A stretch of 63,302 nt of DNA, the filler included, from Craspedostauros australis (Eukaryota): NCBI GenBank assembly GCA_030167865.1. It is 13 parts of 12 records of this genome, joined end to end, with 100 filler letters (N's around TTAATTAATTAA, not from the genome) between each part and the next. Parts side by side here need not be neighbours in the genome. Positions count along the whole stretch, not along the records: positions 1 to 4,249 come from JALAGF010006165.1; 12 more parts are not named here. The stretch is one strand, 5' to 3'. Made by a program: the position numbers and the translations under genes. The notes beneath the pieces were generated by a model. It made no database searches, was not told the origin of the DNA, and saw only the letters and a program-made list of their open reading frames with translations. Positions 82 through 56,670 of this stretch are shown piece after piece (the stretch's first letter is position 1; each line of letters begins with the position of its first letter).

Positions 82-167
82 ATCTGATCAACTCACAATG
101 CAGACTATTCAAAATAACCAATAGCACAACTCAAGATCAGCACAACAACACAAATCTACTCATTGTC
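82..167 (+). mobile_element. Internal fragment of a family-B LTR sandwiched between two A LTRs
   Basis: Near-identical to ~56465-56550 and to the reverse complement of ~2172-2256. Confidence 0.85.
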
Positions 168-957
168 TGTCGAGATGTACATGTGAGTATATGTCGAGAT
201 GTACGAGTATATGTGCATCGTTCACCTGTTATTCTCTCATACGCACTTGGACGGTATAACTACATTCGTGTCGATAGTATACTGTGATTCATCAGAATTA
301 CAGTGGAAATGGAACACACGAAAATGAGCAGAATATCTGGAGGAAATTTGCAATCGACGATTTCTGAGAGAGTTAGAACATCGTCCGTCCATCCATCAAT
401 GGTACCAAGAGAATCTCGAGGTACTTCCCAACTAAACCTCAGATGACAATATCATCNNNNNNNNNNNNNNNNNNNNNNNNNNNNNNNNNNNNNNNNNNNN
501 NNNNNNCCTACTGACGTCGACAGGATGTCATCATGTCACCACGTCGACATCTGTCTCCAAGTCAGAGCAGGAGGCGAAGATCCAATGACCGAAAGGCATC
601 AAGATCATGGATACAGAAGGTGAACTTCAAATGGTAAGTACTCATGGAGTAGGAGCCAGTACTGAATGAACGGAGTGTCAAATGCGGAGTACGCATCGAA
701 CACGGAGTATCGTGTAGCACGAGCACACGATGTTGAGAGAGAGAGAATACAGAGAGGAGCGAGAGAGCATCTCGCATACCGACTCATAGTCGGAGACCGA
801 ATCTACGAAACAGATTGAAGCACCGAGAGCATCGGGCAAGAGAACGAACGGACACCGAGAGGATCAGAGTGCCAACGTAATGAAATAGCAAACGAACGAC
901 TATCAACCAACACCATCTTCCACAATCGTAGGTTACCGTGAGTGGAACTTGCCAACA
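168..957 (+). mobile_element. Family-A copia LTR (~790 bp, TG...CA) without internal domain
   Basis: Begins TGTCGAGATG and ends GCCAACA; colinear with the 3' LTR at 15298-16095. Flanks TTGTC/TTCAT are not a TSD. There is an N gap at 458-506. Confidence 0.92.
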
Positions 958-1562
958 TTCATTGCATCTTCGAGAGTGAAGGAGGCGGGTGAGTTGAGGA
1001 CACACGTCATCTTAGAAGTCGTGGTGTCATCAGCGATATACGCCATTGTCAAGAGTCCTGTCTTGGCCATGTGGTTTCGAACCAAGCGGATGAATTGCTG
1101 GATGTTACCACCTTTCTTGAACTTGTTGGCCAATCCTTGTTCGCGCTTGGATTGGTTCGCAGAGTCAGCTCCGTTGTGGAGGATTCTCTGCTGTTGGGAG
1201 TTGGTCCACATGGTTTGGGACTCATCCTGGAGACCGCTCCATTCCACATTTGGTTCGCCTGCTGTCCAGGGTACCCAGTTGCGGCCTTGCTTGTTAAGTC
1301 CTCCCATGATGGGGACCACTGGCTTGCCGGCAAGGTCGTCGTCGTCATCGTCGCTGTCGCTGTCCGAGCTCTTACCTCCTTTGGGCGTGGGGCTCGTAAT
1401 AGCGTCAGCTGCGGCTTGGGAGGCGGCTGCTGCCATGTTCGCTGCTTGAGCGCTGGCTTCGGCTGTCAACGTTGCCTCTTGGAGGCGACGGTTTTCAGTC
1501 CGAATGGTCTCGAGCTGCGCTTGTAGCTCTTCCATCGTAGGGATGGGTTCCTCTTCCGCCAT
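958..1562 (-). pseudogene. N-terminal part of the gag-like ORF of the family-B LTR element, truncated by the A LTR
   Basis: ORF starts ~470 bp after the LTR+PBS. Coiled-coil/acidic N-terminus, then 'GLANKF..NIQQFIRLVRNHMAKTGLLTMAYI..MTCVLNSPASFTLE', resembling diatom CoDi gag (recognised from memory). Confidence 0.7.
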
Positions 1563-2034
1563 GGTGGGCGGTTTTGGCTCCTTGAGAGGTCTTCTGACTT
1601 CGAAGGGATCGATCTGTTTGCGTTCTACTGCTCTCGCTTCGACTTCACTTCGTTTTGAAGGTGTGCACTGAAGTACGATGCTGGCTTTGGAGAAGGCAAG
1701 CGCTTGGTTTTCAGGCGCAATTGAAGCTTGCTTGAGCAGAGGCTACTGCGATCCAATTGTTTGGTCGGTTATCGCAAGTTGGGACTTTTGTCCTCTCGAG
1801 ATGCTCGGTTTTCGAGCCGTGTGGTCTGATGTTTTGATCAGACGCATGCGTTGGGACCTGAGGGTCCTCTTGTGTTGCTTGGTTTGTGAGCTGTGGAGCT
1901 TAGTGTCCACCTTGGACCTGAGGGTCCTTGCAGGTTGCTCGGTTTGCAAGCATAGCCTTGGGGCTTGGTCTCAATGAGACCATACAAGCAGTTGGCAGAG
2001 GAAGTTGCTCAGAAGAGTTGGTGAACATTGGTGT

Positions 2035-2052
2035 AACCACTTGCAGCTACCA
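2035..2052 (-). promoter_or_regulatory. Primer-binding site, tRNA-iMet-like (TGGTAGCTGCAAGTGGTT)
   Basis: Directly follows the LTR on the minus strand. Complementary to a tRNA 3' end ...AACCACT-TGCAGCT-A-CCA; the TGGTAGC start is the known iMet PBS pattern. Confidence 0.75.
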
Positions 2053-2814
2053 GTTGGATTTTCGTGTGCTGTTGTGACACAATCTGGAAAGGATGGCCTA
2101 GTTGACTGCCAGATTTGAGGAATCTGATGATGAAGACAACTTGGGGCGACCATCTGGGGATTAGTAGTGAATGACAATGAAGTATATTAGTGTTGTTGTG
2201 CTGATCTTGAGCTGTGCTATTGGTTATTTGAATAGGTTGCATTGTGAGTTGATCAAGTTGAGATGTAGGATGAAGAAACGATGCTCAGTTGGATAGTGTG
2301 GCTTTGCACTGATCATAAGAGGTTCAGTGCTGAGAACGGATGATCTCTTCCTCTCTCTCTCTCTCTGCTATCTGCTATCTGCTATCTGTAGTAGTCATTC
2401 TATGCTTGAGTACAAAGGCTTGACATCTTGGTTGAGGGTGTGTTTTTGAGAACACAGGTTGTCAGGCGATGGGAATTGGTGTTAGATTCCCTGCTCTTGT
2501 TGAAGCAGAGAGGATCTCCTTGTTGTTGTCGGGTTACGTTGGCAGTTGACATGGCTGACAATGGAATCAGAGTTAGGTGCGACATGATATTTCAGAGGAG
2601 CATAGTTCCCGGAGTGTTTCGATCTCGATGATTCAAGTGAGTTTTGAATCAGCAGTGATTCGTGAGTGAGAGTGGGAGAAGGAGGGAAAATAGGGGTTTT
2701 CGTATTTGTAGGTGAAAGGTTTCGCGCCAAAATTGACACGCCAAAAACAATTTCATGGTGCGACACGGGATGCACTAAGTGGAAAGTAGTCTGTTCTTTA
2801 GATGAAATTCAACT
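2052..2814 (-). mobile_element. Family-B 5' LTR (763 bp) with AGTTG...CAACT termini
   Basis: Homology to 55917-56670 starts and stops exactly at AGTTG/CAACT; followed by PBS and gag. Confidence 0.88.
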
Positions 2815-4249: not shown

Positions 4250-4349
4250 NNNNNNNNNNNNNNNNNNNNNNNNNNNNNNNNNNNNNNNNNNNNTTAATTA
4301 ATTAANNNNNNNNNNNNNNNNNNNNNNNNNNNNNNNNNNNNNNNNNNNN
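4250..4349. other. Artificial contig linker N44-TTAATTAATTAA-N44 (12-mer also at 7245, 22952, 25761, 27735, 29330, 36731, 38679, 40150, 42616, 45051, 60716)
   Basis: Identical six-frame-stop 12-mer centred in 100-bp N blocks. Confidence 0.97.
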
Positions 4350-7116: not shown

Positions 7117-7200
7117 TGGCATCAGAGGGTGGCATCAGAGGGTGGCATCAGAGGGTGGCATCAGAGGGTGGCATCAGAGGGTGGCATCAGAGGGTGGCAT
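7117..7200 (+). repeat. 13-bp tandem repeat TGGCATCAGAGGG
   Basis: Six or more perfect units running into a contig break. Confidence 0.95.
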
Positions 7201-8058
7201 NNNNNNNNNNNNNNNNNNNNNNNNNNNNNNNNNNNNNNNNNNNNTTAATTAATTAANNNNNNNNNNNNNNNNNNNNNNNNNNNNNNNNNNNNNNNNNNNN
7301 CTAATAGACGATCTCGTTAAATATGATACTTAACGACACGACATGTACTGGTCATTTTCAGCGAATGCAACGACACAGATTGTGGAGGTAAGACTAATTG
7401 GATTAAACAGCCTCGATTCATCTCTCTGGTCAAATGAGTCAAAAAACGCACGTTTCAATGGACTTGCCGGGTGTCCCGGACTTTGCGTTTTGTTGCTGTG
7501 AGAAAATTGTTTGTTGCGTTGCCTTGAGCAAGCGTTCAATGTCGCAACTCGGACCGACTGATGAAGCTGTTTGATGTCAGAGTTTACAATGGGAAGACAA
7601 GAGTGAATGCAATTGATTTGTACTGTGTTTGAAGAGTGTTTTGAGTTGTGAACTTTTGCAAATTATGATTAAGTTGATGATGAAGATAATGAAGATGATG
7701 ATGAAGACAATGAAGAGACAACAATCATGCAGGACATGTTTCTTGGCAGTGTTGTTTGCAGAGAGAGAATACGAAGAGTGGCGAGAGAGCATCTCGCATA
7801 CCGACTCATAGTCCGATGACCCAATCTACAAAACAGATAAACGCGCCGAGAGCATTGGGCAAGAGAATGGACACCGAGAGGATCGGAGTGCCAACGTAAT
7901 GAAATAGCAAACGAAACGACTATCAACCAACACCGTCTTCCACGATCGTAGGCTTCCAATCATGGAACTTGCCAACATATTTATAAACAATAGATCAGGG
8001 CAAGCCCGCGAATCGGATCGTACGAGGAAGACAACATCATTCAAGAGCAGCAGGCTGA

Positions 8059-11000
8059 ATGAACAAGGAAGAGGAATTGAAAGACATCCGTCTGTCCAAT
8101 CCGGCTATCAAGCAAGAAGAAGGTGCGAGTGAGACTCGACCACGACAACAGAAGGAAGCAGGCGCGCCCACTGTCCTGTCTAGCGCAGAAGCAAGCGCTG
8201 TCGACGAGACCGAAGAGGAACGGTCTGCAAGACTACATCGCGAGGGGGAGAGCATTCCCAAAGCGATCAAGCAAGAGGAGACTGGTGTGACAAAGAGTAT
8301 TCGCACGGCCAAACAGGGTGAGAAAAGTGAGACACCATCAGGAGGAGAATTTGTGACGAAAACAATCTCCGCGCAAACACAAGCGAAAATCGAAAAAGTG
8401 ACCACACAGAAACAAACGGAAGCAAGGAGCGTGCGCGCACCATCGACGAGACAACGAATCAACATGGCGACATCAGCTAACATGAACAAGCAACGTATCA
8501 AGGCGCCAATGTTCAGCGGTGACCAAGAGGATTATAACACATGGGAGTCCCAGGCGAAGGCGTACGCGCGTACGCAGAAGACGAGAGACGTGATGTTGGG
8601 CAAGACAAAGATCCCAACGATGAGCGAGATCGAAGCAGCCACCGGAGAGGCCAAGGAGGCAATGGAGGAAACCCATGAGCTGGCAGCCGACTGCTTCAGC
8701 AATCTGATCCTCATGATAGATGCAGAGAAAGGGAAAGGGCAAGCAGGCCATCCAATACATCAATCAGTGCATCTCCGACGACTACCCTGAGGGGAATCCA
8801 CACACGGCGTGGAACGTTCTCGCGGAGAAGTTCCGGCCATCCGACGCAGCAACGAAGATCAAGCTCAAGCGTCAATTCAACAACGAGAAGATGAAGAGAG
8901 ACACGGACCCCGATGTCTACATCACGCGACTCGAGCTTCTACGCTCGCGTCTCCACGATGTCGGATACACGATCACCGACGAGGAAATGATCATGAAAAT
9001 CCTCAGCACGGTGAGCAGCGAATACAGAACACACATCGTGAACTTCCATCACCAAATCACATTCAATCCTGACGTAGTCACCATCAACGCGATCAGAGGA
9101 GTACTCCGCACAGTACACGCCACTCATCAAGGAGGAAAGGCGTATGTCAACAACTTCCAAAACAGCAACATGAAGAGCAACAACACCGGCTTCACGAGCA
9201 CCGGTAACTTCAAGGGTACTTGTCACAACTGTGGCGTGTATGGCCATAGATCCGCCGATTGCCCCGAGCGTAAGAAATCAAATAACAAGAAATCGAACAA
9301 CAACAAAATGAACGGAAAGCGCAACAACAAGAACAAGGGAAGCGGCTTCAACAGGAAGTGCAACTACTGCGGCATCTTCGGACACTGTGAGGCGGAGTGC
9401 CGAAAGAAGAAGTTCAACGAAAAGAAAAAGGCCGACGAGCAGGCCAACACAGCAATGGAAGGACACGACAAGAGCGGGCACGAGATGGTACTCTCAGCAA
9501 AGGACACGCCGCTCTGCATGTTGGTGTCCGACGACTACATCAAAGACTCCTTCTTCGATAACTTCGAGTGCGTCGGGAGTGACGACGAAGTGCAGGATGA
9601 TGAGATCATCCCGGAGTGGCTCAGCGAGGAGCCAATCATCCACGAGGTGGATCCAAGACGCGAAGTGAGCTACGAATGCTGCTTCAACGCGCACGACCTG
9701 ATCGGTCCATACGGCGACGGAGCTGAGATGGACGACGAGGCCAACGATAGCGACATCGAAGAGGCAATGAGCGAAGACGATGAAGACGCCAACGAGAATG
9801 GCTCAGACGAAGACGCCGACGAGGACGGCGCAGATGGAGATGACGACGACACCATCAGAGACGGAGCGAACCGCGCCGAGGCGCCGCCTCCCCCAGCAAT
9901 GCGAAACAAGAGAACGGGCATCTTCGATGAAGAGGACAGCGACGAAGCTGAGGACCGTCCAAGCGATGCGTTCAATCCATATGAACACGTCGTCTATCCA
10001 ATCAGAATCCAATTCCCACCGGAACCAAACCCCAGAAGAGTCGACGACATCTACCGACTCCAGACCTTCCCAGAACCAACGATCACTGCAAAACGAATGC
10101 AGAAGCAGCTCATGTACGACGCGGTTCTAACAGCTGCATTACCGATGTTCCCAGGGTTCGTGAACGAACCATTGCGATACATTTGGGTGAACATGGTAAG
10201 CACCATCCTATCCGATAACTTCAAATCAATTGAAGAGATCCTCGCAAACGCAGCTATCCTCAACCGACTACTGCAAGCAAACGAAGAGGAGGAACTCTCT
10301 GAACTGGACTTACATTACGTGCTCGGAGGATGCATGAAGGTGCTCCTGCGCGAGTGACCACGCGTCACACCGTATGACACGGTCACCGGATTTCATCGGA
10401 ACAGTACGATTCCATCGGACTACGCGCAACTACCCGATGACATGAACGACGAAGAGCACCGCAATCCATACAACGAAGATGGAGTTCACGAAGACGACGA
10501 TGACGGCAGCTTCAACGACGAGATAGCTGCGGCAGCCGTGGAGCAGCTCCATGAGCTAAGCACCAGATACAAGGACAAGGTCAACAAGGACACCTGGCTT
10601 GCCGACAGTGGAGCTTCGTGTCACATCGTCAACTCAGACGCCGCTCTCTTCAACGTGCGGCACATCAAGTCATTCGTCCAAGTGGGAGACAGCACGAAGC
10701 TGGACTCTCCCAAGATGGGATCCATTCGCTTGAAGGTCAAGCAACGAGACAACACTGGCCACATCATCTGGCTCGATGATGTGAAGTACACACCCAAGAT
10801 GGCGATGAACCTTTTCTCTACGAACAAGGCTCTGTACAACGGTTACCAGCTTGGTAACAACGGCATTCTGATGGACATCATCAACGGATCNNNNNNNNNN
10901 NNNNNNNNNNNNNNNNNNNNNNNNACATCCAACGGATTCATCACGGGAGTGCAGATGCATCCCATCATGCCAACGGACGACGACAAGGCTTGCACAGCCA

Positions 11001-14000
11001 TCATCAAGAATCCGTCGAAGGAGATCAGCGCGGCGAACTTACATTGAATGCTCGGCCACGCACCGCTCGAGGCCATGAAGCGGACAGCCGCCCAATACGG
11101 ATGGAAGATTATTGGCGAGATACCGGTATGTCGCGACTGCGCGATCGCGAACGCAAGAGTGACGAACATCTCGAAGGCAACGATTCCAAGAGCAACTCGC
11201 TGCGGCGAACGTCTCTTCATTGACATTAGTTACACTAAACACATAAGCTTCGGAGATAAACGCTACTGGACCCTGATCNNNNNNNNNNNNNNNNNNNNNN
11301 NNNNNNNNNNNNNNNNNNNNNNNNNNNNTAAACGCTACTGGACCCTGATCGTGGACGACTGCACAGATCACTGCTGGAGTTTCTTTCTCAAGAACAAGAG
11401 TGACCAACCAGGGTACATCAAACGATTCGTCCAGACAATCAAGTCACAGACTGGTGATCAACAAATCATCTTCCGAGGAGACAACAGCGGAGAGAACAAA
11501 TCCACGCAGAATATTCTCATCGATGCAGGACTGAACGTGAAATTCGAATTCACGGCATCGAACACGCCGCAACAGAACGGCAGAGTGGAACGCAAGTTCG
11601 CGTACCTCTACACCAAGATCCGCTCCATGCTCAACGGAGCACAACTCGACAAAGAGTATAGGCATGGCCTGTGGGCAGCAGCTGCAAGCACTGCCACCGC
11701 CATTGCCAACATCACCGTAGCGAAGAATCAGAAGGAGTCACCATATCGCCAATTCTTTGGCAACGATCCACCATACGCGGATGCACTCCGCACATTCGGA
11801 GAGGTGGGTGTTGTGAAGACTACCTACGGCGGGATCACCGCCAAACTCAAGAACAGAGGAGAGGAGATGGTGTTCATTGGATATGCACATCAACACGCAT
11901 CAGGGGTCTACAACATGTACAGACCATCGACCAAATCACTGGTCTGCTCTCGCGATATCAAGTGGCTCAACCAATCATACGGACAGTTCCGTGGCTGGGC
12001 ACCAGCACCGAACATATCCAATGAAGCAATAACAACGGATGCAGACGGCTTCACAACCATCGGACGGAAGGGAGCAACGCCAAGGACGGCAACGCGTCAA
12101 ACATCAGAAGCGAAGAGAGTATCTTTCGCTGACACGAACAAATATCCTATCCTATCAGACAGTGATGATGAGGATAATAAGGACGATGGAGTAGTAACTC
12201 AACTAACCAACAACGACGAGGAAGACCGGAGCGAACCCAATCATGAGGATGACGAGATCACACCATCCGGCGACGAAGCCGACGATAACACAGGCGTCAC
12301 TCCTCCCAACACACCAGCGAGGTCTACACATGACACACCATCCAGACCTCCACCAAGCAAGCGTGACGTGGCTAGAAAGGAGAGAATCCGACGTCACGAA
12401 GCACGAGGCAGGAAGGGAGAAGCTAATCCCAAACCGACTACAGGGAAGAGTATTCCCAGAGCTCTGCGTGAGCTCGCAGACTTCAACGAACGAGGTCGAA
12501 AGGAGGAAGGCTATGAGAGCAAGTCATCTGTCAGGAATCGGGTGTTGTGAAACACCAAATTGCCGCACCTCCCAAGAGTGTGGAGTTGAGCATTGTGGAA
12601 TGCTACATTACCGCATCTCCCAAGGAGGCAAGAGTCAGGAGTCGAATGTCATGATATGATACATTACCACAACTCCCACCTGTGGATCTTTGTGACAGGA
12701 AAATGTGAGCTGCACATGTTTTGTGATGGAGAACGACACGTGCCGAATGCGAACCGTACCTTGGCGTTCGTGACCTCAATGCAGGAATGCCAATCACACG
12801 TGTATGTCGCAGGGGGCACGGATGTTGGAATCGTGACCAACATCACGATACGAGCGACTACGGCCCCCATGTTGCAACCAATGAAAAAGAGTACTGGAGG
12901 AAGGCCAATGTCACGAAGTGTGAGACGGCCTGTGAACGAACCAGTGATGACGAACTTCCAGGAAGCCGGTGAAGTGATCGGCGAAGTAACAGGAGAAACG
13001 ACAGGAGAAGCATCGGAGAAGCATCGGAGATGATCGGAGATGTGTGATGGTCGAGGAGCTGAGTGAGCTCCCAACCAAGGTGTTCCCGCGACGAATGGGC
13101 AATCGTGATCTGATCGAATGAACCGATCTGTGTGATGCCTACGACTCGGTGATGTCTATGCTAACAAAACTATTGGTAGAGGGCAGGAGATGGAATATCT
13201 GAGATGCATGATGAGATGCATGATGAGATGAACCAATACTGCAAGATGAGATGTACATGGAGTACATGCTGCATGACATGATGAAGCAGGAGGACAGCAC
13301 TGCATGAGCAAGGGCAAGGCTGTGTGCTACTGTGGAATATGTATGCTTTGGCAAATGGAATTGAAAGTGATGAAAATGTTGTACTCACAGTTCCAACAAT
13401 GCAATAACATGAATAGGTAACCAGAGACTACTACTAGAGACTGGGGTACCCCGGATTTCCAATAGTCATCATCCGAGGAAGATAGTGACGAACTGAGTGA
13501 TGAGATAACTGACGAATCCAACAACGAAACTACAGATGACGAAGAAATTGTAGATGAAGATGAAGAAATCGAGATCACTCATCACAGCACAACTGGACTA
13601 TACAGGATGAATGCAATCATCACCGAAGCACCAGCGATCGACATTGGACTGTCGATGCAGGACGAGAACAAAGAACCAGAGAAGCACATTGAACCAACAA
13701 CATTTGATGGAGCCTTCAACCACCCAGATCCCATCCATCGAAAGGGATATCGAGCAGCCATCAAAAAGGAGTTCGACTCAATGGATACACGCAAGGTGTA
13801 CAGCAAGATCAAATGAGACGCCATCCCACGTGGCCGTAGATGCTGCAAGTGCAAGTGGGTCTTCAAGTTGAAGCGTGACGGCACACATCGAGCGCGACTC
13901 GTTGCATGTGGCTATTCACAAGTCGCAGGAGTAGACTTCCAAGAGCACTACTCACCCGTCATCCATGACGTGACATATCGAGTCATGATGGTGATCATGC

Positions 14001-15277
14001 TGATCAAGAAGATGGACTGCGCACTCGTCAATGTCGTAACGGCATTCCTACACAGAGACCTCAACAAGGAGATCTACATGAACTGTCCCAATGGGATGGA
14101 TCATCAACCAGACGAAGCCCTGACCCTACACAAGCCAATCTACGGACTTGTNNNNNNNNNNNNNNNNNNNNNNNNNNNNNNNNNNNNNNNNNNNNNNNNN
14201 NNNNNNNNNNNNNNNNNNNNNNNNNNNNNNNNNNNNNNNNNNNNNNNNNNNNNNNNNNNNNNNNNNNNNNNNNNNNNNNNNNNNNNNNNNNNNNNNNNNN
14301 NNGGAGACTCCAAGGCACTGGAGACATTCCTGAAGGACATCCAAGGCAGCAAATTCAAGGTAACAATCGAGCGTGGACTCGGAGACTACCTCAGCTGCAA
14401 CATCGAACTGAACCATGACAAAACTAGAGCAACGTTGCGTCAACCACATCTCATCCGGCACCTTATCGAAGAGTTCGGAACCAAGGTTGAGAAGATGCAA
14501 CGCTACGCGACACCGGGAACCCCAGGTCAAATCATCGTACGACCATCCGAAGATAACGGACTGCAGAAGGTCGGACCGGAAGAACATGTCGAATACCGCC
14601 AAGGCGTCGGTATGCTACTCTTCCTCATCAAGCACTCGCGACCAGATATCGCGAACCCTGTGAGAGAACTCTCCAAGGTATTGATCGGGCCCACCAAGGC
14701 CGCAATGAAGGAGATATATCGGATCATCAAATATGTGATTGATACAAAGGACTATGGATTGAAGATCCATCCAGCGCGTCCAAACGACGACGGCTGGGAC
14801 ATGGAGCTCTTCTGCGATAGCGAATATGCAGGAGACAAGAACACGAGAATCAGCGTAGGGGGATTCATCCTATACCTGTGCAAGATACCAATCCTTTGGC
14901 GATCCAAGGCACAGAAGGCCGTCACACTCAGCTCATCCGAAGCAGAATATGTTGCCCTTTCCAAAGCGGCAAAGGAAATCTTCTTCGTCATGCAGCTACT
15001 CGAAAGTGTGGGCGTCCCAGTGAAGACACCGATCAAGGTCNNNNNNNNNNNNNNNNNNNNNNNNNNNNNNGCCAAGAACCCATCAACATCCCAACGATCG
15101 CGGCACATCGACGTGCGCCATCACTACGTGAGGAACATGGTAATCAACAAAACCATTGAAATCAGTTTCGTCAAATCCGAGCAGAACACAAGCGACGGAT
15201 TCACCAAGAACATCAAGGCCGACTTACAACGAGAACATGAGAAGTCTTACCTTGACACATCGAGAACATTCGAATGA
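8059..15277 (+). pseudogene. Copia gag-pol polyprotein, disrupted
   Basis: Two CCHC knuckles (CHNCGVYGHRSADC, CNYCGIFGHCEAEC), protease WLADSGASCH, integrase (DDCTDHCW, DNSGE, PQQNGRVER), RT (KWVFK..RARLVACGYSQ), RNase H (CDSEYAGD, AEYVAL, HIDVRHHY). Frameshift near 8737; in-frame TGA at 10355, 11045 and 13814; insertion at 12529-13464. Confidence 0.95.
12529..13464 (+). mobile_element. Family-C insertion (solo-LTR-like, TGTCAGG...TCCAATA) with 6-bp TSD GTCATC
   Basis: GTCATC at 12523-12528 and 13465-13470; removing the insert plus one 6-bp copy restores the pol frame (KSSSEEDSD...). Confidence 0.92.
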
Positions 15278-15297: not shown

Positions 15298-15850
15298 TGT
15301 CGAGATGTACATGTGAGTATATGTCGAGATGTACGTGTATATGTGCATCGTTTACCCCTTATTCTCTCATACGCACTTGGACGGTACAACTACATTCGTG
15401 TCGATAGTATACTATGATTCGTCAGAATTACAGTGGAAATGGAACACACGAAAATGAGCAGAATTTCTGGAGGAGATTTGCAATCGACGATTTCTGAGAG
15501 AATTAGAAGATCGTCCGTCCATCCATCAATGGTACCAAGAGAATCTCGAGGTACTTCCCAACTAAACCTCAGATGACGATATCATCTGACAGGCTACTGC
15601 ATCACCAATGGAACATGACATCTGGAGAGCAGAAGGATGCCTACTGACGTCGACAGGATGTCATCGTGTCACCATGTCGACATCTGTCTCCAGGTCAGAG
15701 CAGGAGGGGAAGATCCGATGACCGAAGGGCATCAGGATCTTGGATACAGGAGATGAACTTCAAATGGTAAGTACTCATGGAGTAGGAACCAGTATTGAAT
15801 GAATGGAGTGTCAAACATGGAGTATCGCGTAGCACGAAGCACACAATGCT

Positions 15851-15887
<37 letters not shown>

Positions 15888-16095
15888 CAGAGAGGAGCGA
15901 GAGAGCATCTCGCGTACCGACTCATAGTTGGAGACCGAATCTACAAAACAGATTGAAGCGCCAAGAGCATCGGGCAAGAGAACGGGTGTACACCAAGAGG
16001 ATCGGAGTAGCCAAGTAATGAAATAGCAAACGAACGACTATCAACCAACACCACCCTCCACGATCGTAGGTTACCAATCATGGAACTTGCCAACA
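15298..16095 (+). mobile_element. 3' LTR of the family-A element
   Basis: TG...CA, follows PPT, contains a (GA)n tract; colinear with 168-957. Confidence 0.95.
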
Positions 16096-17030
16096 AGTTC
16101 GTGCCATTTTGCTTTTTCAGATCACATCACCGGTGCGCGGAGAATGTGTACATCTCTCAACGCATGGTCCATCATGGGACCATGCCCTATGTGTCAAGCA
16201 TCAGATCGACAACGCTCCAACAAAGACATCGTTCATCCAACTAATTCGATCTAATAGATCTAAGCTAGCAGTTAGGCAAAGGAAGGATTTCTTGGCACAC
16301 ATGACTTGTTTCCCACGAATTGGCCCAAACCACGTTTCGAACATAACCACGTTTGGAGCATGCACAAACCATTAAAGGAGATCTTTGAAACCCAGGATAC
16401 ATGGAAAAAGGATTCCAATGACCTGGTCATCGGAAACCTTCTTCGCCGAAATCTTGATGCCTGGACAAGACTGCCAGATCAAAGGATTGGTACCCCACAG
16501 GAACGCACACCGAAAACCTTTGCCTCACTCCCGACTCGACAAAGGGAACCTCCTGTGGTACCGGGGCCATGCAAACCCTAGGACCCTTCTTGAGGGTCAT
16601 CACAGGAGATCTCCCCAAAAACAAGAAGCATAGCAATAACTCTCATAATCCGAACATTTCTTCACCATCTACCAGTATTCTCAATTGACTACTTGTGGAA
16701 CAGAAGTACACTCATTTGGACCCGCTTGCCAATCAAGCCTCTACAGCCAACAACATCTAACAAGTGATGAGCCATTACATTTGAGCTCTATTATGATCAT
16801 GGAGCGTTATTGTATCAGACTCAATTCCAAACTCGTCAACGCATCCATCCAACGCATCCGTTTCAGTTTCACTTTCATCTCACTCAGCACACATGCACAC
16901 TCCTCACACTTGCCAATGGTGCATCGCAATGATCAGACCATCGGCCTCCGCACCTCAGTCAACTAATCATAAAACCAAAGTTCTTGCATACTAAGAAGTT
17001 ATCGCTGTTGGGGGCCATGGAGAATACCCA

Positions 17031-18627: not shown

Positions 18628-20496
18628 CAGAGAGCCCCAGGATGACTGGACTCGAGTCGGTCATGGCATTGAGTCATCAATGGTTTGTGAATGAGAGAGG
18701 AGGAAACGGAGAAGAGGAGGGTGTTGCGTTCGTTGAAGTCAGTTAGGATTCGGGCTCAGTCGACGCGAATCGGTGGAGGATGCCTTGTGAATCTGCCAGT
18801 TTCAGGATAACCGTGTGATGCAGTTCAAGAGAGGTGTACTGGATAGAAGATGTGTTACTATAACGATGAGTAGATGAATGCTTTGGAGCTAATCTTTGTC
18901 TGTTTTTATGAGTTAGCTTGTAGTGTTGGTAGGGTGAAGAAACGATGCCACACAACTTGGTGAGACCCTGCACTGATGTACTTGGTTCAAAGCTTGAGGG
19001 TAGATGGTCATAACAGTTCCTTGCTCTCCACACACATAGACACGCTGCAGTGTAGGTCATGACACTCAATGGTGGCGGTCATGAAGCAATGGCTGTGGCT
19101 GGAGTTCACTCTTGGATTCCATTGCTTGAGTTGCAAATTGGATATACGTGTCAGGACTACAGCAGTAATGCAGTAGTCATTGGCATGGAGGGAATCGAGG
19201 TATGTTGTAGTGAAAGAATCTGAGGAGCATATAGTTCCCAAGGTGAAATGTGAGTCAGGTCGGTCATGTTTGAGTCATGATGGATTCGTGAATGGAGGAG
19301 AGAAAGAAAGGGGGAAAAGACTTGGTGGTCGAGAAAGTCGGAAGATTTCGCACCAAAACAAGAATTTCTCCCGTCGGAGGTGGATACCGTGTCCGGTAAT
19401 AGTCTGTCCCTTATTTAATCTCAACTAAGTCGGATGGTTTTGTGTCATTAGTTGAATTTGTGATGATCGGGAGACGATACGGATGTGTGTTGTGTTGTGT
19501 TGTGTTGTGTGTGTGTGTCATGTGTGTGTCGTGTGTGATGTGGGTGTGTCGTGTGTGTCGTGTGGTGATGTGTGTGCCACAGCGACAGCGAATATCAGAT
19601 AATCCCAAAAGCAAACTGTACAGTATGACGCGGGTGTGTTGTNNNNNNNNNNNNNNNNNNNNNNNNNNNNNNNNNNNNNNNNNNNNNNNNNNNNNNNNNN
19701 NNNNNNNNNNNNNNNNNNNNNNNNNNNNNNNNNNNNNNNNNNNNNNNNNNNNNNNNNNNNNNNNNNNNNNNNNNNNNNNNNNNNNNNNNNNNNNNNNNNN
19801 NNNNNNNNNNNNNNNNNNNNNNNNNNNNNNNNNNNNTACAGGCAGTGCAAGTGCTGCAAGCGCGAGTGCAAGGGCACGAGAGCAGCGATGGAGCATGATC
19901 AAGGGGCCTTGATACACACACAACAAAGGTGAAAGCAGCGATGATGGTGCTGTTTCGCACAGTGGTGTGGCATGGGATCATGACAAGTGCCAGTTGTTGA
20001 TGACATGTTCGCCAATAATGATTTCGCAAGCACGTCATGCTTGGCTGGCGTGTAACGAAATCTGCATGTTGCATAATTGGTGTGTGTCAACTGACAAATG
20101 TTTGGAGTTGGCATTCCCATGCACGGATATAGTAATATTGTGGCATGCATTTGAACAGTTAACTGTCGGAAACCGTCAGACACGAACCACAGAAATCAAA
20201 ACACATATATACACACACAATGATCGGTAAAAAACAGGGGATTGCCTGGATGTGTGTGTGTGTGTGTGTTATGTGTGTGTGTTGTGTGTGTGTTGTGTGT
20301 GTGTTGTGTGTGTGTTGTGTGTGTGTTGTGTGTGAGATGGAATTATTATGTTTTCTCTGTTTGTCTCCGCAGAGGCTGCGAACATGGGGATTTGCTGCTG
20401 CTCTGTCTGTCATCTGACCGTATACCAACAGAATTTCAGGCATCGGCGAGGGACATCAAAAGTTGGAGATAGTCTGTCCCTTATGGAACTTCAACT
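18628..20496 (-). mobile_element. Divergent family-B-like LTR remnant, interrupted by 18741-19426 and by GT-microsatellite-rich sequence
   Basis: Minus-strand start AGTTGAAGTTCCATAAGGGACAGACTA at 20496 matches B LTR starts; 18635-18720 resembles 19235-19310. Confidence 0.55.
18741..19426 (-). mobile_element. Family-B-like solo LTR (686 bp), AGTT...AACT termini, 5-bp TSD AAGTC
   Basis: AAGTC at 18736-18740 and 19427-19431; shares start motif and internal blocks (GAGGAGCA.ATAGTTCCC, TTTCGC.CCAAAA) with 2052-2814. Confidence 0.88.
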
Positions 20497-22393: not shown

Positions 22394-23007
22394 GTCAGAT
22401 TTATGGCAATGTTCTCGGTGTTGCGGGCGATTTTTGGCTTCGAGATGTTTTTGCATTCGTTGCTGCCGTTCCTGTCGTTGAGTTTGTGTTTGCGGATGAT
22501 TTGATTTGATGTGCGGTGTGGTGTGGTGTGGTGTGGTGTGGTGTGGTGTGGTGTGGTGTTGTTTGTCGGCTTCGTTTTGTGAGCATGAAAATGCAATCGC
22601 CCACGAAACATCGCTGTCAAGCCTTTGTGTCTTATGAGAGACACACCTGGTAAAGGCCAAGAGAGCGTTGCGACACGAAGGCGATAGAACGCAGATACTC
22701 GAATCACGAGTTACTTAGCCGGATTTTGTCATGTCGGTGCCGCTCTCAAGCCATCCAACTGCGCGGCAGACACCACAGACCTTCTCACAATCTCCGATTC
22801 TTGCTCCATCAGTTGGACAAAGACATTCCAACCTTTCCTGCATGCGGCTGCAGTCAAATTGGAAGATCATTGTTTGGATGGATGGATGGATGGATGGATG
22901 GATGGATNNNNNNNNNNNNNNNNNNNNNNNNNNNNNNNNNNNNNNNNNNNNTTAATTAATTAANNNNNNNNNNNNNNNNNNNNNNNNNNNNNNNNNNNNN
23001 NNNNNNN

Positions 23008-25716: not shown

Positions 25717-25816
25717 NNNNNNNNNNNNNNNNNNNNNNNNNNNNNNNNNNNNNNNNNNNNTTAATTAATTAANNNNNNNNNNNNNNNNNNNNNNNNNNNN
25801 NNNNNNNNNNNNNNNN

Positions 25817-28800
25817 TGTTGTACACTCCTGATGCATGTTGGTGTGCATATCCAATGAACACCATCTCTTCTCCTCTATTCTTGAGCTTGGCGGAGATCC
25901 CGCCATAGGTGATCTTCACAACAACCACCTCTCCGAATGTGCGGAGTGAATTGGCATATGGTGGATTGCTGCCAAAGAATTGGCAATGGCAGTGGCAGTG
26001 CTTGCAGCTGCTGCCCACAGGCCATGCCTCTATTTGTTGTTGAGTTGTGCTCCGTTGAGCATGGANNGGANCTTGGTGTAGAGATACGCAAACTTGNGTT
26101 CTACTCTACCATTCCGCTNTGGNGTGTTGGACGCCATGNACTCNAATTTNGCATTCAGTCCTGCATCGATGAGAGTATCCTGCGTGGATTTGTTCTCTCC
26201 GCTGTTATTGCCTTGGAAAATGATTTGTTGATCACCTGTGTGTGATTTGATCGTCTGCATGAATCGTTTGATACCCTGGTTGGTCCCTCTTGTTCTTCAG
26301 AAAGAAGCTCCAGCAGTAGTCCGTGAAGCCNNNNNNNNNNNNNNNNNNNNNNNNNNNNNNNNNNNNNNNNNNNNNNNNNNCGTCATTTCTGAATCGTTGA
26401 GTGTGTTTGGTGCTTGCGCCCAGCCACAGAACTGTCCATATGATTGGTTGAGCCATTTGATGTCACAGGAACAGACCAGTGACTTGGTCAATGGTCTGTA
26501 CATGTTGTACACTCCTGATGCATGTTGGTGTGCATATCCAATGAACACCATCTCTTCTCCTCTATTCTTGAGCTTGGCGGNNNNNNNNNNNNNNNNNNNN
26601 NNNNNNNNNNNNNNNNNNNNNNNNNNNNNNNNNNNNNNNNNNNNNNNNNNNNNNNNNNNNNNNNNTTGGCAATGGCAGTGGCAGTGCTTGCAGCTGCTGC
26701 CCACAGGCCATGCCTCTATTTGTTGTTGAGTTGTGCTCCGTTGAGCATGGAATGGATCTTGGTGTAGAGATACGCAAACTTGCGTTCTACTCTACCATTC
26801 CGCTGTGGTGTGTTGGACGCCATGAACTCAAATTTCGCATTCAGTCCTGCATCGATGAGAGTATCCTGCGTGGATTTGTTCTCTCCGCTGTTATTGCCTT
26901 GGAAAATGATTTGTTGATCACCTGTGTGTGATTTGATCGTCTGCATGAATCGTTTGATACCCTGGTTGGTCCCTCTTGTTCTTCAGAAAGAAGCTCCAGC
27001 AGTAGTCCGTGAAGCCGTCCACGATCAAGGTCCAGTAGCGTTTATCTCCGAAGCCTATGTGTTTAGTGTAACTGATATCAATGAAGAGGCGTTCGCCACG
27101 GCGAGTCGCTCTTGGGATTCTAGTCTTTGAGATGTTCTTCACTCTCGCATTCGCAACAGCACAGTCGCGACACACCAGCATCTCGCCGATGATCTTCCAT
27201 CCGTATTGAGCGGCTGTCTGCTTCATGGTCTCGAGTGGTGCGTGACGGTGCATTCCATGCAAGTTCACTGCGCTCACCTCCTTGGATGGGCTCTTGATGA
27301 TGGCTGTGGAAGCCTTGTCATCCTCAGTTGGCATGATGGGATGCATCTGCACTCCTGTGATGAATCNNNNNNNNNNNNNNNNNNNNNNNNNNNNNNNNNN
27401 NNNNNNNNNNNNNNNNNNNNNNNNNNNNNNNNNNNNNNNNNNNNNNNNNNNNNNNNNNNNNNNNNNNNNNNNNNNNNNNGTAGAGAAAAGGTTCACCACC
27501 ATCTTGGGTGTGTACTTCACATGATCGAGCCGGAAAATGTGGCCAGTGTTGTCGCGCTGCTTGACCTTCAAGCGGATGGATCCGATCTTGGGAGAGTCCA
27601 GCTTCATGCTGTCTCCCACTTGGATGAAGGACTTGATGTGCCGCACGTTGAAGAGGCTGGCGTCTGAGTTCACGATGTTACACGAGGCTCNNNNNNNNNN
27701 NNNNNNNNNNNNNNNNNNNNNNNNNNNNNNNNNNTTAATTAATTAANNNNNNNNNNNNNNNNNNNNNNNNNNNNNNNNNNNNNNNNNNNNGTGCTTTGTA
27801 CTCGGCACTCACTGTGCTGAGGAGCTGCATGATCATTTCCTCGTTGCTGATCTCGTGCCTGACGTCTTGAAGGCAGGAGTGCAATAGCTTGAGCCATGCG
27901 ATGTAGACATCTGGATCAGTGTCCTTCTTCATCTTCTTGTTGTTGAACTGCCTCTTGAGCTTGATCTTGGTGGCAGCATCGGATGGCTTGTACTTCTCCG
28001 TGAGAAGTTTCCACACCTTGTGTGGGTTCCCCTCAGGGAATATGTCGGAGATGCATTGGTTGTTGTATTGGATGGCTTGCTTGCCTGTACCCTTCTCTGC
28101 ATCCATCATGAGGATCAGATCGCTGAAGCAGTTGGCTGCCAGCTCGTAGGTCTCCTCCAATACTTCCTTGTCTGCTTCTGTGGCAGCTCCAATTTCGCTC
28201 TTGGTTAGGATCCTCGTCTTCCCCAACATCACATCTCTTGTTCTCTGCGCACGCATGTACGCCTTTGTTTGGGACTCCCAGGCATTGTAGTCCTCCTGAC
28301 TACCGCTGAATAGCGGCGCCTTGATAGGTTGCTTGTTCACGTTGGCTGATGTTGCCATGTTACTCTGTTGCTTCATTGATGTTACGTGCACGCTCGTGAT
28401 CTCCGTTTGTTTCTGTGTGATCACTTTTTCAATTTTCGCTCGTGTTTCCGCGGAGATGTCTTTCGTCACAAATTCTCCTCCTCGTGTTGTCTCACTTTCT
28501 CTGCTCTGTTTGGCCGTGCGAATGCTCTTCGTCACACCTGTCTCTTCTTGCTTCATATTTGTGAGAATGCTCTTCTGCACGAGTCGTAGTCTCGCAAACC
28601 AATCCTTGTTGGTCTCGTCGATCGCGCTTCCTTCTGCGCTAGAGAGGACAGTGGGCGCACCTACTTCCTTCTGTGGTTGAAGTGGAGTCTCACTCACACC
28701 TTCTTCTTGTTTGATAGTTGGGTTGGACAGAGGGATGTCTTTCAATTCCTCTTCCTCACTCATTCAGCCTGCTGCTCTTGAATGATGTGGTCTTCTTTGC

Positions 28801-29285: not shown

Positions 29286-29385
29286 NNNNNNNNNNNNNNN
29301 NNNNNNNNNNNNNNNNNNNNNNNNNNNNNTTAATTAATTAANNNNNNNNNNNNNNNNNNNNNNNNNNNNNNNNNNNNNNNNNNNN

Positions 29386-33412: not shown

Positions 33413-35482
33413 GAGCGAGTCGACCTACACTCCGTTATTGGACTCTAGAAATTCTATCTTGGATATCCAAACCAAGCACATATTCGTAATACTTGTAGGT
33501 CTAATACGAATATTTAACCATTTTATTTTTGAGTTAGAGCTTATTTTAAGCTTGATGGACAGTCAAAGATATGATGAAGTCATATGGGTCGAACCCCACC
33601 AAACTCGTCGTTGTTTTTCGGAAAGTTCTAAGATGTTCTCAAGTATTTATCGTCAGGTCACCAGTCACGGAGACGACGCCGAAGGTGTCATTCGTTTGGT
33701 ACTCGTTAATTACACGTTAGCGTGTGTCACAGGTTTCCACATTTTGTGCATCCCAACAACGCACAAATTGTTGGCAAACGTCACCCACCAAACACCACAC
33801 ACCGCACGCCAAGCATCATCGTCACAATTTGGTTCCATTTCAAAGCTCTCTCCGCTAATGCCATGCACACTCGCTGTTGCGTTCCATGCTCGTTCTTGTC
33901 ATGGTAGTAACGGTAGTAGTCGTAGTAGTAGTCGTTGTTGTTGTCAACGAATGGTCGACCTTATCGCATGCTCTTGTTTCTGCACTTTGTCCTAGACTTG
34001 TGCAGCTCATCACATCCAACTTGCACAAAACACTACTCTACAGCGACAACTACATCATGCCTCTCTCTACCACCATCAAGGCCCTCTCCAAGGATGGCAA
34101 CCCCTCCCCCAGGTAGAAACCGCATTCTACTCACCCTGTACCTGATCCTCCCTTTGATTCAAAGGGGTTCCTGCTGCCTACCAACGAGCAACTATTGCCT
34201 GACATGCCATCCGCTGCATTCCAGAAGCCGAACACCATCACGAAAGTGATCGATGTGAAGCCGATGCTTGCAGCGGATGGCAGCCTTGTCGCGAACGGTA
34301 CGCATGCGCACGCTCGCAAGCTGCACATGTTCATCCACATCCTTGACAACAATGGAGGCGTCTTCGATGACTCCAATGTCAGGGTGCGCTCCGAGGGACA
34401 AGATGTCGGTGATGGGATTTTGGTGAGCGTTATCATAAACATGCCACCCCCAGCTGCACCTGACGTTGCACCACCTGTCAATCCCATGCCACCAGCGAGT
34501 CCATGGTGTTGCAATGCTGTTGTTGCTGGGAGATACACAGATAGCTTCAATGATAGCGACATCACCTACAATGACAACGACAAGGAGAAACGAATGCGCG
34601 CCAGCAGCGGCAAGAGAGGAGGTCAGTTCAGGTATCATCCGCAAGAGGGAGAGAACTGGGGGTGACTTGCTGTGATTCACATCATGGAGGAGCTCACAGA
34701 CCACTTCAACGTAAATGTGCTTAACTCAATGCCTCCCACGGGATTCATGCTTGGTAGCAAGTGCGATAGGCCAACAGGGTGGAACTTAACACATATGTGT
34801 GTCACCATGGCTACTGCGCTCTGGGGTGTCTTGCTCCCTTGTGAGGAATTGCCAACTCACCAGATGCAACAGGTGGTGACGTTTGTCCACACTTGTGCAG
34901 ACCTACGGCCACCTACACTCAGTCCAAATCTGCACACCCTATGTGTGAGGGGGAAGACACTGGCTAACACAGCCAGAGCTATTCTCGCTGCAACAATGCC
35001 ATGCAACAACAGCTCTGCAATCCTGTCTTGTCATGTAGAGACTTGCCAGAGGAACTATGTGTTCGTGACGAGCCCACACGCGCCGCTATCACCCGAAGCC
35101 AGCTCACAAAGTTGCGGCTCCCAACAAATGCCAAAAATCCACAGCTGGTGCCATCGTGGATGCAATGTTGGGTTGTCTGGTGGGAAAACCAAAAAAGAGA
35201 CTAAACAATTCAAAATGGGAACAAAATCGCTGAAACAAATAGCAGGAGCGTGTCAAGTTGGATCGATGTCGTCGGAAGCGCTGCGCTGAATCCCGGAAGA
35301 GATCAAAGCACGCGCACATCCATCGGCCCATAAAACCTAAAATAGGATCTAACTCCAAAGTGTATTGGTAAATTATTTATAAGGAGACTACGAGGATCAC
35401 GAATATGCGCTTGGTTTGGACATCCGAGACACAATTTCTGGAGGCCAATAGTAAAGTGCAGGTCGACTCGCTCGGTGGGCTC
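33413..35482. mobile_element. Non-autonomous DNA transposon-like element with long (~150 bp) imperfect terminal inverted repeats
   Basis: 33413-33560 aligns with the reverse complement of ~35325-35473 (GAGCGAGTCGACCT.CACT...CCAAACCAAGC.CATATTCGT...GAGTTAGA); interior holds a decayed ORF at 34057-35130. Confidence 0.75.
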
Positions 35483-35765
35483 GGACACCCATTGTTCCGC
35501 CCGAACAATTCTCTTCACCTTGGGTGTCGCTGATTGTTGTTGTTCTTCGTGTGGTTTCAGAGCACTTGTGATTCTCGACAGACACATGCACACTCTACTC
35601 GTGCAACTACGATGATGATTGGAAAGCCACGGTACCATACATGCTCATGGCAGATGCGGATTCATGATGCATTTTTCATTGGTGTCATAATCTCGTCTTC
35701 TTCCACACATCAATCAACGACTGCCGACCAACTCGCAACTCGAAACTCACAACAGCGTTCACACC

Positions 35766-42671: not shown

Positions 42672-44621
42672 TCGTGAGATGGATGAGGTGCGACCTTCCT
42701 GGCGGGGCAATTTTGCAGTCGTGAATGGTTGGTTTTTACCATAAGTGGAAGTTTTTGACTGGTTCCGGTAACGACGTTTTGATCTGTGATTGCGAGTTTT
42801 GGTCCGAGTTTGGGGACGCCACACACTTTTTGTTCGTGGGGAGTTCACTTTCGACACGTTCACAGTTTTGGGTCCATCTGGGTCAAGGCTTTCCATCACG
42901 AGATCGTAGAGACTGCGTTTCACAGCTCCATTGAAATGTGTGGGACGTTTGTGCACTTGCTTGAACCGTTCCTTGACTCGTGCCTTGTTATAGGCTAAAT
43001 CAGTAGAGTTGATTAAGTTGGGTCTTCGTGGAACGTTCGTGTGNAGGAGGAGTAGAGTTACGGCGATTAGCATCCAGGCATTAGCTGCCACGATGTACCA
43101 CCCATACTCTACTCCGATGGTGATGACTTGGAGTGAAGCGAAGAGGAGAACCGTTCCAACGATGCTACCGAAGTAGTTGAAAGAGGTGCAGAGGTTCCAT
43201 ATGAGGGACCACCAGGTGTCTTCGTCTTGGCTGGAGGCGGCTGTGAAGCATGTCCAGGCAGCCATGTCGATGGAGAGGTTTTCTTGTTTGGGAACGTTCT
43301 TGCCCTTTGCCTTCGCCTTGAACTTGAAGTTGTCCTGGTGGCTCTCGGTGTTGTGCGAGAGACGCCAGNNNNNNNNNNNNNNNNNNNNNNNNNNNNNNNN
43401 NNNNNNNNNNNNNNNNNNAGTCCGCGGGCTTGACCCAAAACTCACACAACACTTCGCTTGGACTTCTGGGATCCGCGTGAAACTACCCAAACTTTATCTA
43501 GGTGCGACCTTCCTGGCGGGGCAATTTTGCAGTCGTGAGTGTTTGGTTTTTACCATAAGTGGAATTTTTCGATTGATTCCAGTGACGACGTTTTGATCTG
43601 TGATTGCGAGATTTGGTCCGAGCCTTGGGATGCCACACACGTTTTGTTCGTGGGGAGTTTCCTTTCGACACGTTCACGGGTTTGGGTCCATCTGGATCGA
43701 GACTTTCCATCACGAGATCGTAGAGACTGCGTTTCACAGCCCCATTGAAGTATGTTGGACGTTTGTGCGCTTGTTTGAACCGTTCTTTGACTCGTGCCTT
43801 GTTATAGACTAGGTCAGTAGGGTTGATTGAGTCGGGTCTTCGTGGAACGTTCGTGTGGAGGAGTAGTAGAGTCACGGCGATGAGCATCCAGGCATTGGCT
43901 GCCGCGATGTACCACCCATACTCTACTCCAATGGTGATGACTTGGAGTGAAGAGAAGAGGAGAACCACTCCAACAATACTACTGAAGTAGTTGAAGGAGG
44001 TGAAGAGGTTCCAGATGAGGGACCACCAGGTGTCTTCGTCTTGACTGGAGGCGGCTGTGAAGCAAGTCCATGCAGCCATGTCGATGGAGAGGTTGTCCTG
44101 TTTGGGAACTTGCTTGCCTTTTGCCTTCGCCTTGAACTTGAAGTTGTCCTGGTGACTCTCGGTGTTGTGCGAGAGACGCCAGCGGCGGCACTTGGCGCAC
44201 CACATGAACGTCTTGTCGTTGACAAGCTTGCGCTGTGGTTCACCGGGCTTGGGAGCTTTGGACGACCAGCCCTGGCCGGCGTTGCGTTTGGCGTCGCGTT
44301 CCTTGGACTTCTTGAAGTTGTTTCTCTTCCCGTCGTTCTTGGAGAAACCCTTGTGTTGCTCGAGAACGTTGGCGCTTGGATTCTGGACGACGTTGTTGGC
44401 GTACGAGTACCTTGGCACGTTGCTATCTTTGGTACGCCTGATGGCATGCCAGCGATTTCCGCGCACTTCGTTTTCGTACGACGCCTCGGCCTTGTTGCAG
44501 ATTGCCATCCATGTGAGATCTTTTGCGGCGAGCTGGGGGCGAGCGTGCTCATACGTGAAGATGGGAAGACGCATGAGGATTTCCTCAAGGTCATCCTTCA
44601 TCACATAGAGAGGACGTCGGT
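42672..44621 (-). mobile_element. C-terminal part of a CoDi-type gag (two diverged overlapping copies) with CCHH finger and hydrophobic segments
   Basis: 'WSSKAPKPGEPQRKLVNDKTFMWCAKCRRWRLSHNTESH' resembles diatom copia gag ends; cut at 44622 by a family-C insertion. Confidence 0.72.
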
Positions 44622-45006
44622 TGTTAGGAATTGAGGGTACGACTTTGTCGGAATACCCGTGATTGCCGCACCTCCCAACATTGTTCGTCACAGCTTTGAA
44701 TATTATTCGTCACATGTTCTGAGACTATTTGTCACACCTTTATATGCCATGTCAATATGACTATGACTAAGGGTACGGACGCGATTGATACCTGTACCAC
44801 CGTGAGGAAGATAGCCTGTCCTCCAGTAACGCAAGGACGACACCTATGGCAGATCAGGAGGTCCCGATACCAAGCCAACCATGGCAACCATGCAGACGAC
44901 GACGTTGATCAGAACGGCAAGACCATGGGCAGGTGACGCACCTTCTTCAGAGGACAGCACGCGCCCCTCCTGCGGACAAGAACATCCGCAGGTTTGGAAC
45001 ATCAGA
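44622..45006 (+). mobile_element. Family-C element left part (third variant), cut by contig end
   Basis: TGTTAGGAATTGAGGGTACG...GATTGCCGCACCTCCCAA matches 17054-17111. Confidence 0.8.
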
Positions 45007-55916: not shown

Positions 55917-56670
55917 AGTTGAAGTTCATCTAAAGAACGGACTACTTTTCACTCAGTGTGTTCCTTGTCGCACCTTGAAATTATTTTGGCGCGAAATTTT
56001 GGCGCGAAACCTCCCACCAACAAATACGGAACAATCGCTCTTTTCCCTCCTTCTCCCACACTCATTCATGAATCACCACTGACTCAAACACTATCCGAAG
56101 TCAATGGGATCAAGATACCCTGGGAACTATGTGCTCTCCTGAACTATTGTAATGCAGCCAACATGAATTCCGTTGTCAGCTAAACAACCTGACAACCTTG
56201 CATGACAACAGCCAAGAGATCCTTCCTGCTTCAACACACGCAGGGAATCTTACATCAATTCCTGCGGCCTGACAACCTGTGTTCTCGATCCCAAAACCTC
56301 AATCAAGGTGTCAAGGCTTAGTACTCGAACGTAGAACGACTACGATGAGATACTGGAGAAAGAGAGAAAGAGAGGACCCNNNNNNNNNNNNNNNNNNNNN
56401 NNNNNNNNNNNNNNNNNNNNNNCACCATTCAGACCGACTATCGTTTCTTCATCCTACATCTCAAACTGATCAACTCACAATGCAGACTATTCAAATAACT
56501 AATAGCACAACTCAAGATCAGCACTACAACACTAATCTACTCCATTGTCACATACTACTAATCTCCAGACGGTCGCCACACGTTGACTTCACCATCAGAT
56601 TCTTTGAATCTGGCAGTCAGCTAGGCCATCCCTTCCGGATCGTGTCACAACAGCACACGAAAATCCAACT
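55917..56670 (+). mobile_element. Family-B solo LTR, AGTTG...CAACT, 5-bp TSD ACAAC
   Basis: ACAAC at 55912-55916 and 56671-56675; colinear with the reverse complement of 2052-2814. Confidence 0.92.

Follow-up and report, generated by a model that had tools for sequence, protein, structure and literature searches.

How does an LTR retrotransposon family with a copia-type gag come to be bounded by AGTT...AACT instead of TG...CA, and what does it mean that the last base of its LTR is at the same time the first base of its primer binding site (PBS)? These questions are raised by a truncated element on the minus strand of a draft contig of Craspedostauros australis. The window, that is, the whole stretch of DNA that was analysed, is a chain of 63,302 nt assembled from TE-rich draft contigs of this organism and contains many N runs. 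Pairs of 44-N runs spaced 12 bases apart occur at 12 sites (4250-4349, 7201-7300, 22908-23007, 25717-25816, 27691-27790, 29286-29385, 36687-36786, 38635-38734, 40106-40205, 42572-42671, 45007-45106 and 60672-60771). At both sites that were read the 12-base insert is TTAATTAATTAA, which places stops in six frames. These pairs are contig spacers; the window therefore consists of separate contigs, and adjacency across such a site is no evidence of linkage. The three LTR copies A, B and C discussed below each lie on a separate contig.

Several further features of the window were recorded. The Pfam scan located a DUF6824 gene at 22714->21605 (minus strand), a domain that we take to be a diatom one; along with the marine-metagenome relatives of the gag described below, it points towards a diatom. 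A 1217-codon open frame at 46476-50129 (plus strand) belongs to no Pfam family and lies in the GC-richest part of the window (57-59% GC). A 13-bp tandem repeat of GGCATCAGAGGGT occupies 7120-7200 and extends into a gap, and an ankyrin/BTB gene at 56795-57964 contains a 102-bp tandem duplication at 57509-57712.

LTR copies and their ends

Copy A, a 5′ LTR of 763 bp (2052..2814, minus strand), was delimited by reading of the sequence and by blastn comparison to copy B. It begins with AGTTGAATTT at 2814 and finishes with AAAATCCAACT at 2052, its last bases being AATCCAACT, so that the LTR starting with AGTTG and ending with CAACT on the minus strand, as given in the original prediction, is found at 2814->2052. 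The terminal inverted repeat of this copy spans about 10 bp, with matches at 9 of 12 positions. Copy B is a solo LTR of 754 bp including 43 N (55917..56670, plus strand) that reads AGTTGAAGTT...AATCCAACT and is enclosed by a perfect 5/5 target duplication, ACAAC, at 55912-55916 and 56671-56675. The alignment of A and B runs from end to end (query 1-763) and not beyond, with 74% identity over 769 columns; across comparisons, the identity of the two copies amounted to 74-80%.

A second solo LTR, copy C (686 bp, 18741..19426, minus strand), reads AGTTGAGATT...AATCCTAACT. Its target duplication, AAGTC on the plus strand and GACTT on the minus strand, is likewise perfect (5/5; 18736-18740 and 19427-19431). 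With blastn no match of copy C to A or B was obtained. In a MAFFT alignment it reached 355 matches compared to 271 ± 25 in 40 shuffles (maximum 309), and it is about 52% identical to the A/B group. Judged by this alignment, copy C is genuinely, if remotely, related. The two solo copies had been put forward as independently fixing the boundaries of the family. The perfect duplications at both do fix the ends seen in copy A. The LTR at 18741-19426 is, however, a diverged relative and cannot be counted as another copy of the family to which A and B belong.

A fourth LTR, copy E (19450..20496, minus strand), reads AGTTGAAGTT...AAATTCAACT and encloses a 194-N gap. It has no matching target duplication, the flanks being AAGAG and AATGA. 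Its overall MAFFT score of 315 matches vs. 294 ± 26 in shuffles is not above the null, and its likeness is confined to the ends, where 24 of 28 bases are common with the start of C. As a 5′ LTR, copy E was rejected, since no TGG follows its end. CA-rich microsatellites lie within it at 20255-20345 and 19480-19600. Additionally, an 83-bp fragment of an AGTT-type LTR, termed D (85..167, plus strand), corresponds to positions 560-642 of copy A with 92% identity and is sandwiched between two pieces of a different LTR, X, which is described below.

The start AGTTGA and the end AACT are common to 4/4 LTRs (A, B, C and E). All four also share a TAA.G.AC.GACTA block about 15 bases from the start. Conservation across the copies covers the first 28-32 and the last 10-12 bases, and within the terminal inverted repeats 8-9 of 12 positions agree. 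As these ends are shared by three diverged groups (A/B, C and E), the ends are conserved while the interior drifts. The two solo copies combine short inverted ends with a target duplication, as is characteristic of LTR retrotransposons. Within U3, a tandem TTTTGGCGCGAAA-like motif was noticed at 2735-2765 (minus strand, copy A) and 55978-56010 (copy B) and in weaker form in copy C. This motif, which A and B have in common and which C retains in part, presumably resembles an E2F-type site.

To describe the ends as integrated, the family is bounded by AGTTGA...CCAACT. Their sub-terminal inverted repeat, GTTGR...YCAAC, is what a typical copia element shows. Compared with the common TGTTG...CAACA, the change is limited to the outermost base pair, and each transferred strand consequently ends in ...CT-3′ and not in ...CA-3′. 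Both transferred strands finish with ...AACT-3′, the left end AGTT giving the same on the other strand. In place of the TG...CA of Ty1/copia elements, AG...CT is found in all four family LTRs.

Chance was controlled with 100 block shuffles, in which pairs spaced by 300-1500 bp and bearing a 5/5 target duplication were counted. AGTTGA...AACT pairs were observed twice compared to a mean of 0.07 in the shuffles, none of which (0/100) reached two; such pairs are thus about 30-fold commoner in the window than in shuffled sequence. Bare AGTT...AACT pairs were observed four times vs. 0.49 expected. Two of these four, at 15926-16641 and 35110-35747, do not show the family motifs; they probably arose by chance and were rejected as family members. 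Among the boundary shifts tried for copies B and C, none yields a target duplication with TG...CA ends. The AGTT...AACT ends of this LTR family are confirmed as real.

Gag, its relatives and neighbouring elements

A gag reading frame had been predicted to follow the PBS, and the ATG at 1562 opens such a gag-like frame. Its N-terminal part of about 201 codons covers 958..1562 (minus strand). The frame is cut at 957/958, and the final seven open-frame codons (957->936) derive from LTR X. Because the cut lies within gag, copy A is left without pol and without a 3′ LTR. LTR X (168..957, plus strand, TGTCGAG...GCCAACA), which abuts and truncates gag, belongs to an ordinary copia family with TG...CA ends. 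It holds a 50-N gap and its flanks are unrelated; the 957/958 junction may therefore reflect an insertion event, recombination or an error of scaffolding.

Further LTR copies of family X are located at 15298-16095, 54610-55393 and 7760-7977, the last beside a copia gag-pol. The internal region of this family (8720-15277) encodes Retrotran_gag_2, zf-CCHC, Pol_BBD, an integrase SH3 domain and RVT_2. No TGG site follows the LTR of family X (7978-8020 and 28845->28800). Instead, a conserved stretch, ..TAAAC.ATAGATCAGGGCAAGCCCGCG.ATCGGATCG, is present after the LTR in two diverged copies and may represent a non-standard primer site.

For the gag of copy A, no Pfam family was matched. A word-indexed protein search returned no relative, and no usable match was obtained from the Protein Atlas. 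An exhaustive phmmer search of 1.84 billion representatives revealed 295 relatives at E<=1e-3, 51 of them at E<=1e-10. The best relatives are 33-37% identical, and residues of about 79-203 of the gag align with the N-terminal part of these proteins. The 20 longest relatives were subjected to a Pfam scan, in which zf-CCHC was found in 15, gag_pre-integrs in five, Pol_BBD in three, rve in one and RVT_2 in two. A gypsy-type domain occurred in none of the 20, and three were without any family. Multi-domain relatives show the order PR-IN-RT. In P0063 (2040 aa), gag_pre-integrs at 883-952 is followed by rve at 1013-1087 and RVT_2 at 1550-1787, and in P0105 zf-CCHC (372-388), gag_pre-integrs (680-745) and RVT_2 (1299-1528) follow each other. 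All 31 cluster proteins listed for ten of the gag relatives come from ENA, JGI, NCBI or Logan records. When the gag alignment (A3) was compared as a profile with the polyprotein alignment (A4), the probability came to 100%. This value involves some circularity, since most rows of A3 are gag pieces from A4's own family.

Since the long gag relatives have the copia domain order, we infer that the lineage is of the Ty1/copia type. This putative assignment is drawn from gag identities of 30-37%, at the protein level, to polyproteins of metagenomic origin. The target duplications ACAAC and AAGTC, both of 5 bp, have the length seen in Ty1/copia elements. The copia-type assignment finds indirect support in the homology of gag to copia-order polyproteins; copy A itself contributes no pol domain. 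Of the AGTT family, the window contains neither a full-length copy nor a 3′ LTR, and neither a polypurine tract nor a pol gene.

A second copia lineage is represented by element F (45006->40150, minus strand). The C-terminal part of a gag of the polyprotein lineage found above was detected in it at 43759..44637 (minus strand), which aligns with residues 251-568 of P0063 (24% identity, E 8e-16). Downstream, at 42615->40150, there are pieces of protease and integrase that share only 31-49% identity with their counterparts in family X. Possibly F is the body of an element with AGTT-type LTRs. It has no attached LTR because the contig starts at 45006.

Scans of viral contigs with P0063 and with alignment A4 gave no match. 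The comparison of alignment A4 with a collection of prokaryote genomes led to four mis-binned loci (L120-L123). Three of them, L121-L123, are truncated pieces, and the element of L121 adjoins GC-rich, bacterial-looking DNA. The fourth, L120 (noted at L120:657-1432), is a 7036-bp contig in a bacterial MAG and represents a whole copia-type relative from the same broad lineage in a circular assembly with a 99-nt end overlap. Past its pol stop, a purine run is followed directly by AGTTAT. Four TGG sites lie in the interval from that stop to the start codon of gag, none of them tRNA-like, and a second copy was not found in the MAG of L120. With no tRNA-like TGG site the LTR end of L120 is undefined, so this locus neither confirms nor extends the AGTT/PBS pattern.

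Primer binding site and origin of the terminal T

The 18-nt PBS TGGTAGCTGCAAGTGGTT was read in the sequence at 2035..2052 (minus strand). The T at 2052 is both the last base of the LTR and the first base of the PBS, and the next bases are GGTAGCTGCAAGTGGTT. With up to three mismatches allowed, the 18-mer is unique in the window (one match; 0.07 expected). The dual role of the final T as LTR end and as start of a tRNA-type PBS, which had been claimed for this locus, is thereby reproduced. The site begins with TGG and adjoins the 5′ LTR, as a tRNA-type PBS of an LTR retrotransposon does, and copy A is the only PBS-bearing copy in the window. An untranslated leader of 472 nt (1563..2034, minus strand) with several short hairpin-forming inverted repeats separates the PBS from gag. 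For the region 1560-2814, a look-up of sequencing runs listed none.

The complement of the PBS shows U72, A73 and A60 (standard tRNA numbering), which we take to be hallmarks of an initiator tRNA. Within the window there are no tRNA genes. A metagenome scan with a 15-mer of the PBS complement returned at least 119 loci, and none of those listed has a tRNA context; the only listed one with a following CCA, L089, reads as bacterial coding sequence. The PBS 18-mer gave no match in a scan of viral contigs, and a search of literature text for PBS and tRNA strings matched only unrelated primers. Counting the T, the complementarity extends over exactly 18 nt, as the following element base, A, would not pair with A58. 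A PBS of 18 nt with an unpaired next base is consistent with a complete tRNA, CCA end included, having been copied between A76 and position 59. The modified base m1A58 is a stop for plus-strand copying of the tRNA.

The right end of the linear cDNA of such elements is set by the point at which RNase H removes the tRNA primer. We propose that the 3′ end of an initiator-Met-type tRNA would prime minus-strand synthesis, with A76 paired to the U at 2052. RNase H would then cut the primer one base short, and the minus strand would keep rA76 at its 5′ end, as happens in HIV-1. The plus strand would copy this rA as its final T, by which the 3′ LTR would gain a base equal to the first PBS base in the 5′ LTR. 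The integrase would join the final T untrimmed, and the left end AGTT would provide the identical ...AACT-3′ on the opposite strand. For HIV-1, PMC3185654 describes one rA:dT pair that RNase H leaves on U5 and that is later trimmed by the integrase. As in HIV-1, the linear DNA would be expected to end with the first PBS base. The HIV-1 integrase removes that base and leaves a provirus with CA at its end, whereas here the base belongs to the integrated LTR. Because retention of rA is known in HIV-1, the proposed mechanism carries an established idea over to another host lineage.

The strength of this proposal differs between its parts. That we are dealing with a family with AGTT...AACT ends and of copia type is very probable. 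Retention of rA combined with the lack of trimming is put forward tentatively. For the locus as a whole, we lean slightly towards the interpretation as 5′ LTR, PBS and truncated gag of a Ty1/copia-type family whose ends arise through retained rA and untrimmed joining. Retained rA, priming by a tRNA that lacks the A, and further trimming would all have the same outcome in the sequence.

The same family with the same ends could also show the overlap without any mechanistic meaning, the final T being an ordinary U5 base. Priming would then start from a tRNA or tRNA fragment without the terminal A, or from an effective 17-nt PBS beginning at GG; the first DNA base would be placed opposite the U, and the primer would be removed cleanly at the RNA-DNA junction. 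A T before GG is expected by chance in about one of four cases, only a single PBS-bearing copy is at hand, and the resulting DNA would be identical to that observed. On the other hand, the complementarity including the T is exactly 18 nt and thus has the full length for a CCA-ended tRNA. Furthermore, in the gypsy lineage, another one with T-ending LTRs, the first PBS base is as a rule the last LTR base, as stated in PMC3286476. This recurrence of the overlap argues for a systematic link, and we consider a meaningless coincidence unlikely.

Similarly improbable, in our estimation, is a linear cDNA that is longer than AGTT/AACT and undergoes ordinary 3′ processing with cleavage after CT instead of CA. 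This might happen, for example, if more of the tRNA were left and copied and if bases were left between the polypurine tract and U3. Such trimming would be in line with most retroviral integrases, which remove two or three bases (PMC3185654, on HIV-1). Moreover, GG lies next to the LTR of copy A, and an extended inverted repeat CC/AGTT...AACT/GG is conceivable. Against additional bases speaks the purine run of L120, which abuts AGTT directly, at boundaries that are uncertain there.

Descent from a Ty3/gypsy (errantivirus-like) element, from which the AGTT...AACT ends would have been inherited, appears highly improbable. The ends and the one-base PBS overlap do match those of Zam and gypsy elements, but in the gag relatives gag_pre-integrs and rve precede RVT_2, which is the copia order with the copia RT family. 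Besides the missing gypsy-type domain in the 20 long relatives, both RT-bearing ones have RVT_2 after the integrase. The target duplications, finally, measure 5 bp here and 4 bp in errantiviruses.

The idea that the ends are a product of chance or assembly, with true TG...CA ends a few bases inside, could draw on the fragmented, N-rich assembly and on the approximately 0.5 chance AGTT...AACT pairs with matching duplication expected per window, but it was tested against the window and rejected as scarcely credible, given two independent solo copies with perfect duplications at identical end bases, an A/B similarity that halts exactly at the proposed ends and the failure of every boundary shift to give a duplication with TG...CA.

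Relation to known elements and significance

AG-starting LTRs had been ascribed to insect gypsy elements and errantiviruses, which agrees with PMC3601003, where the LTRs of Zam-clade errantiviruses are given as AGTTAYRK...TAAYT, also with the end TAACT. The AGTT family resembles the insect gypsy/Zam errantiviruses (Metaviridae) in its AGTT...AAYT ends and in the one-base overlap of LTR and PBS. Unlike these Ty3/gypsy elements, its gag is related to copia-order polyproteins. Its target duplication of 5 bp and its PBS, putatively of initiator-Met type, are also different. Elements of the gypsy group use tRNA-Lys or tRNA-Ser as primers.

With ordinary Ty1/copia elements (family X, plant Sire/Retrofit and the diatom CoDi groups) the family shares the 5-bp duplication, the sub-terminal repeat GTTG...CAAC and gag relatives with the order gag-PR-IN-RT. 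The difference lies in the outermost pair, which is A...T here vs. T...A there. For the plant Sire and Retrofit copia elements, Table 3 of PMC3601003 gives TGTT...AACA or ...CA. A survey of 50 plant genomes (preprint 10.1101/137141) reports seven non-TGCA end types, mostly in copia elements, and describes the first T as the one terminal base that is invariant. The main text of the CoDi paper (PMC2806351) contains no passage on LTR termini, PBS or tRNA.

Ends and overlap of this kind are thus already known, from another superfamily and another kingdom. Their occurrence on an element with a copia-type gag appears to be new within the literature searched. The AGTT family represents errantivirus-style ends on a copia-type element, which is modestly novel and not a new kind of element. 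Every ingredient of the interpretation has a described precedent; the interpretation is plausible and less novel than first presented. Whether a copia-type diatom lineage independently reached the errantivirus solution, with ends set by the terminal A of the primer tRNA and a 3′-T joined untrimmed where a 3′-A is near-universal, is doubtful on the present evidence, although we retain it as a conceivable outcome.

The finding has a practical side for the annotation of diatom genomes. According to PMC7466962, the annotation of Cyclotella cryptica employed LTRharvest with '-motif tgca'. LTR searches restricted to the TGCA motif would miss the whole AGTT family, and diatom TE content as well as insertion maps would in consequence be biased. 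If full-length copies bear this out, the family would depart, as a copia-type element, from the TG...CA rule at precisely the base that acts as nucleophile. The rule would be broken in the same way as in insect gypsy, which argues that removal of the tRNA primer can dictate the LTR end. If this holds true, these elements would show in nature how strictly retroviral-type integrases keep to their 'invariant CA' rule.
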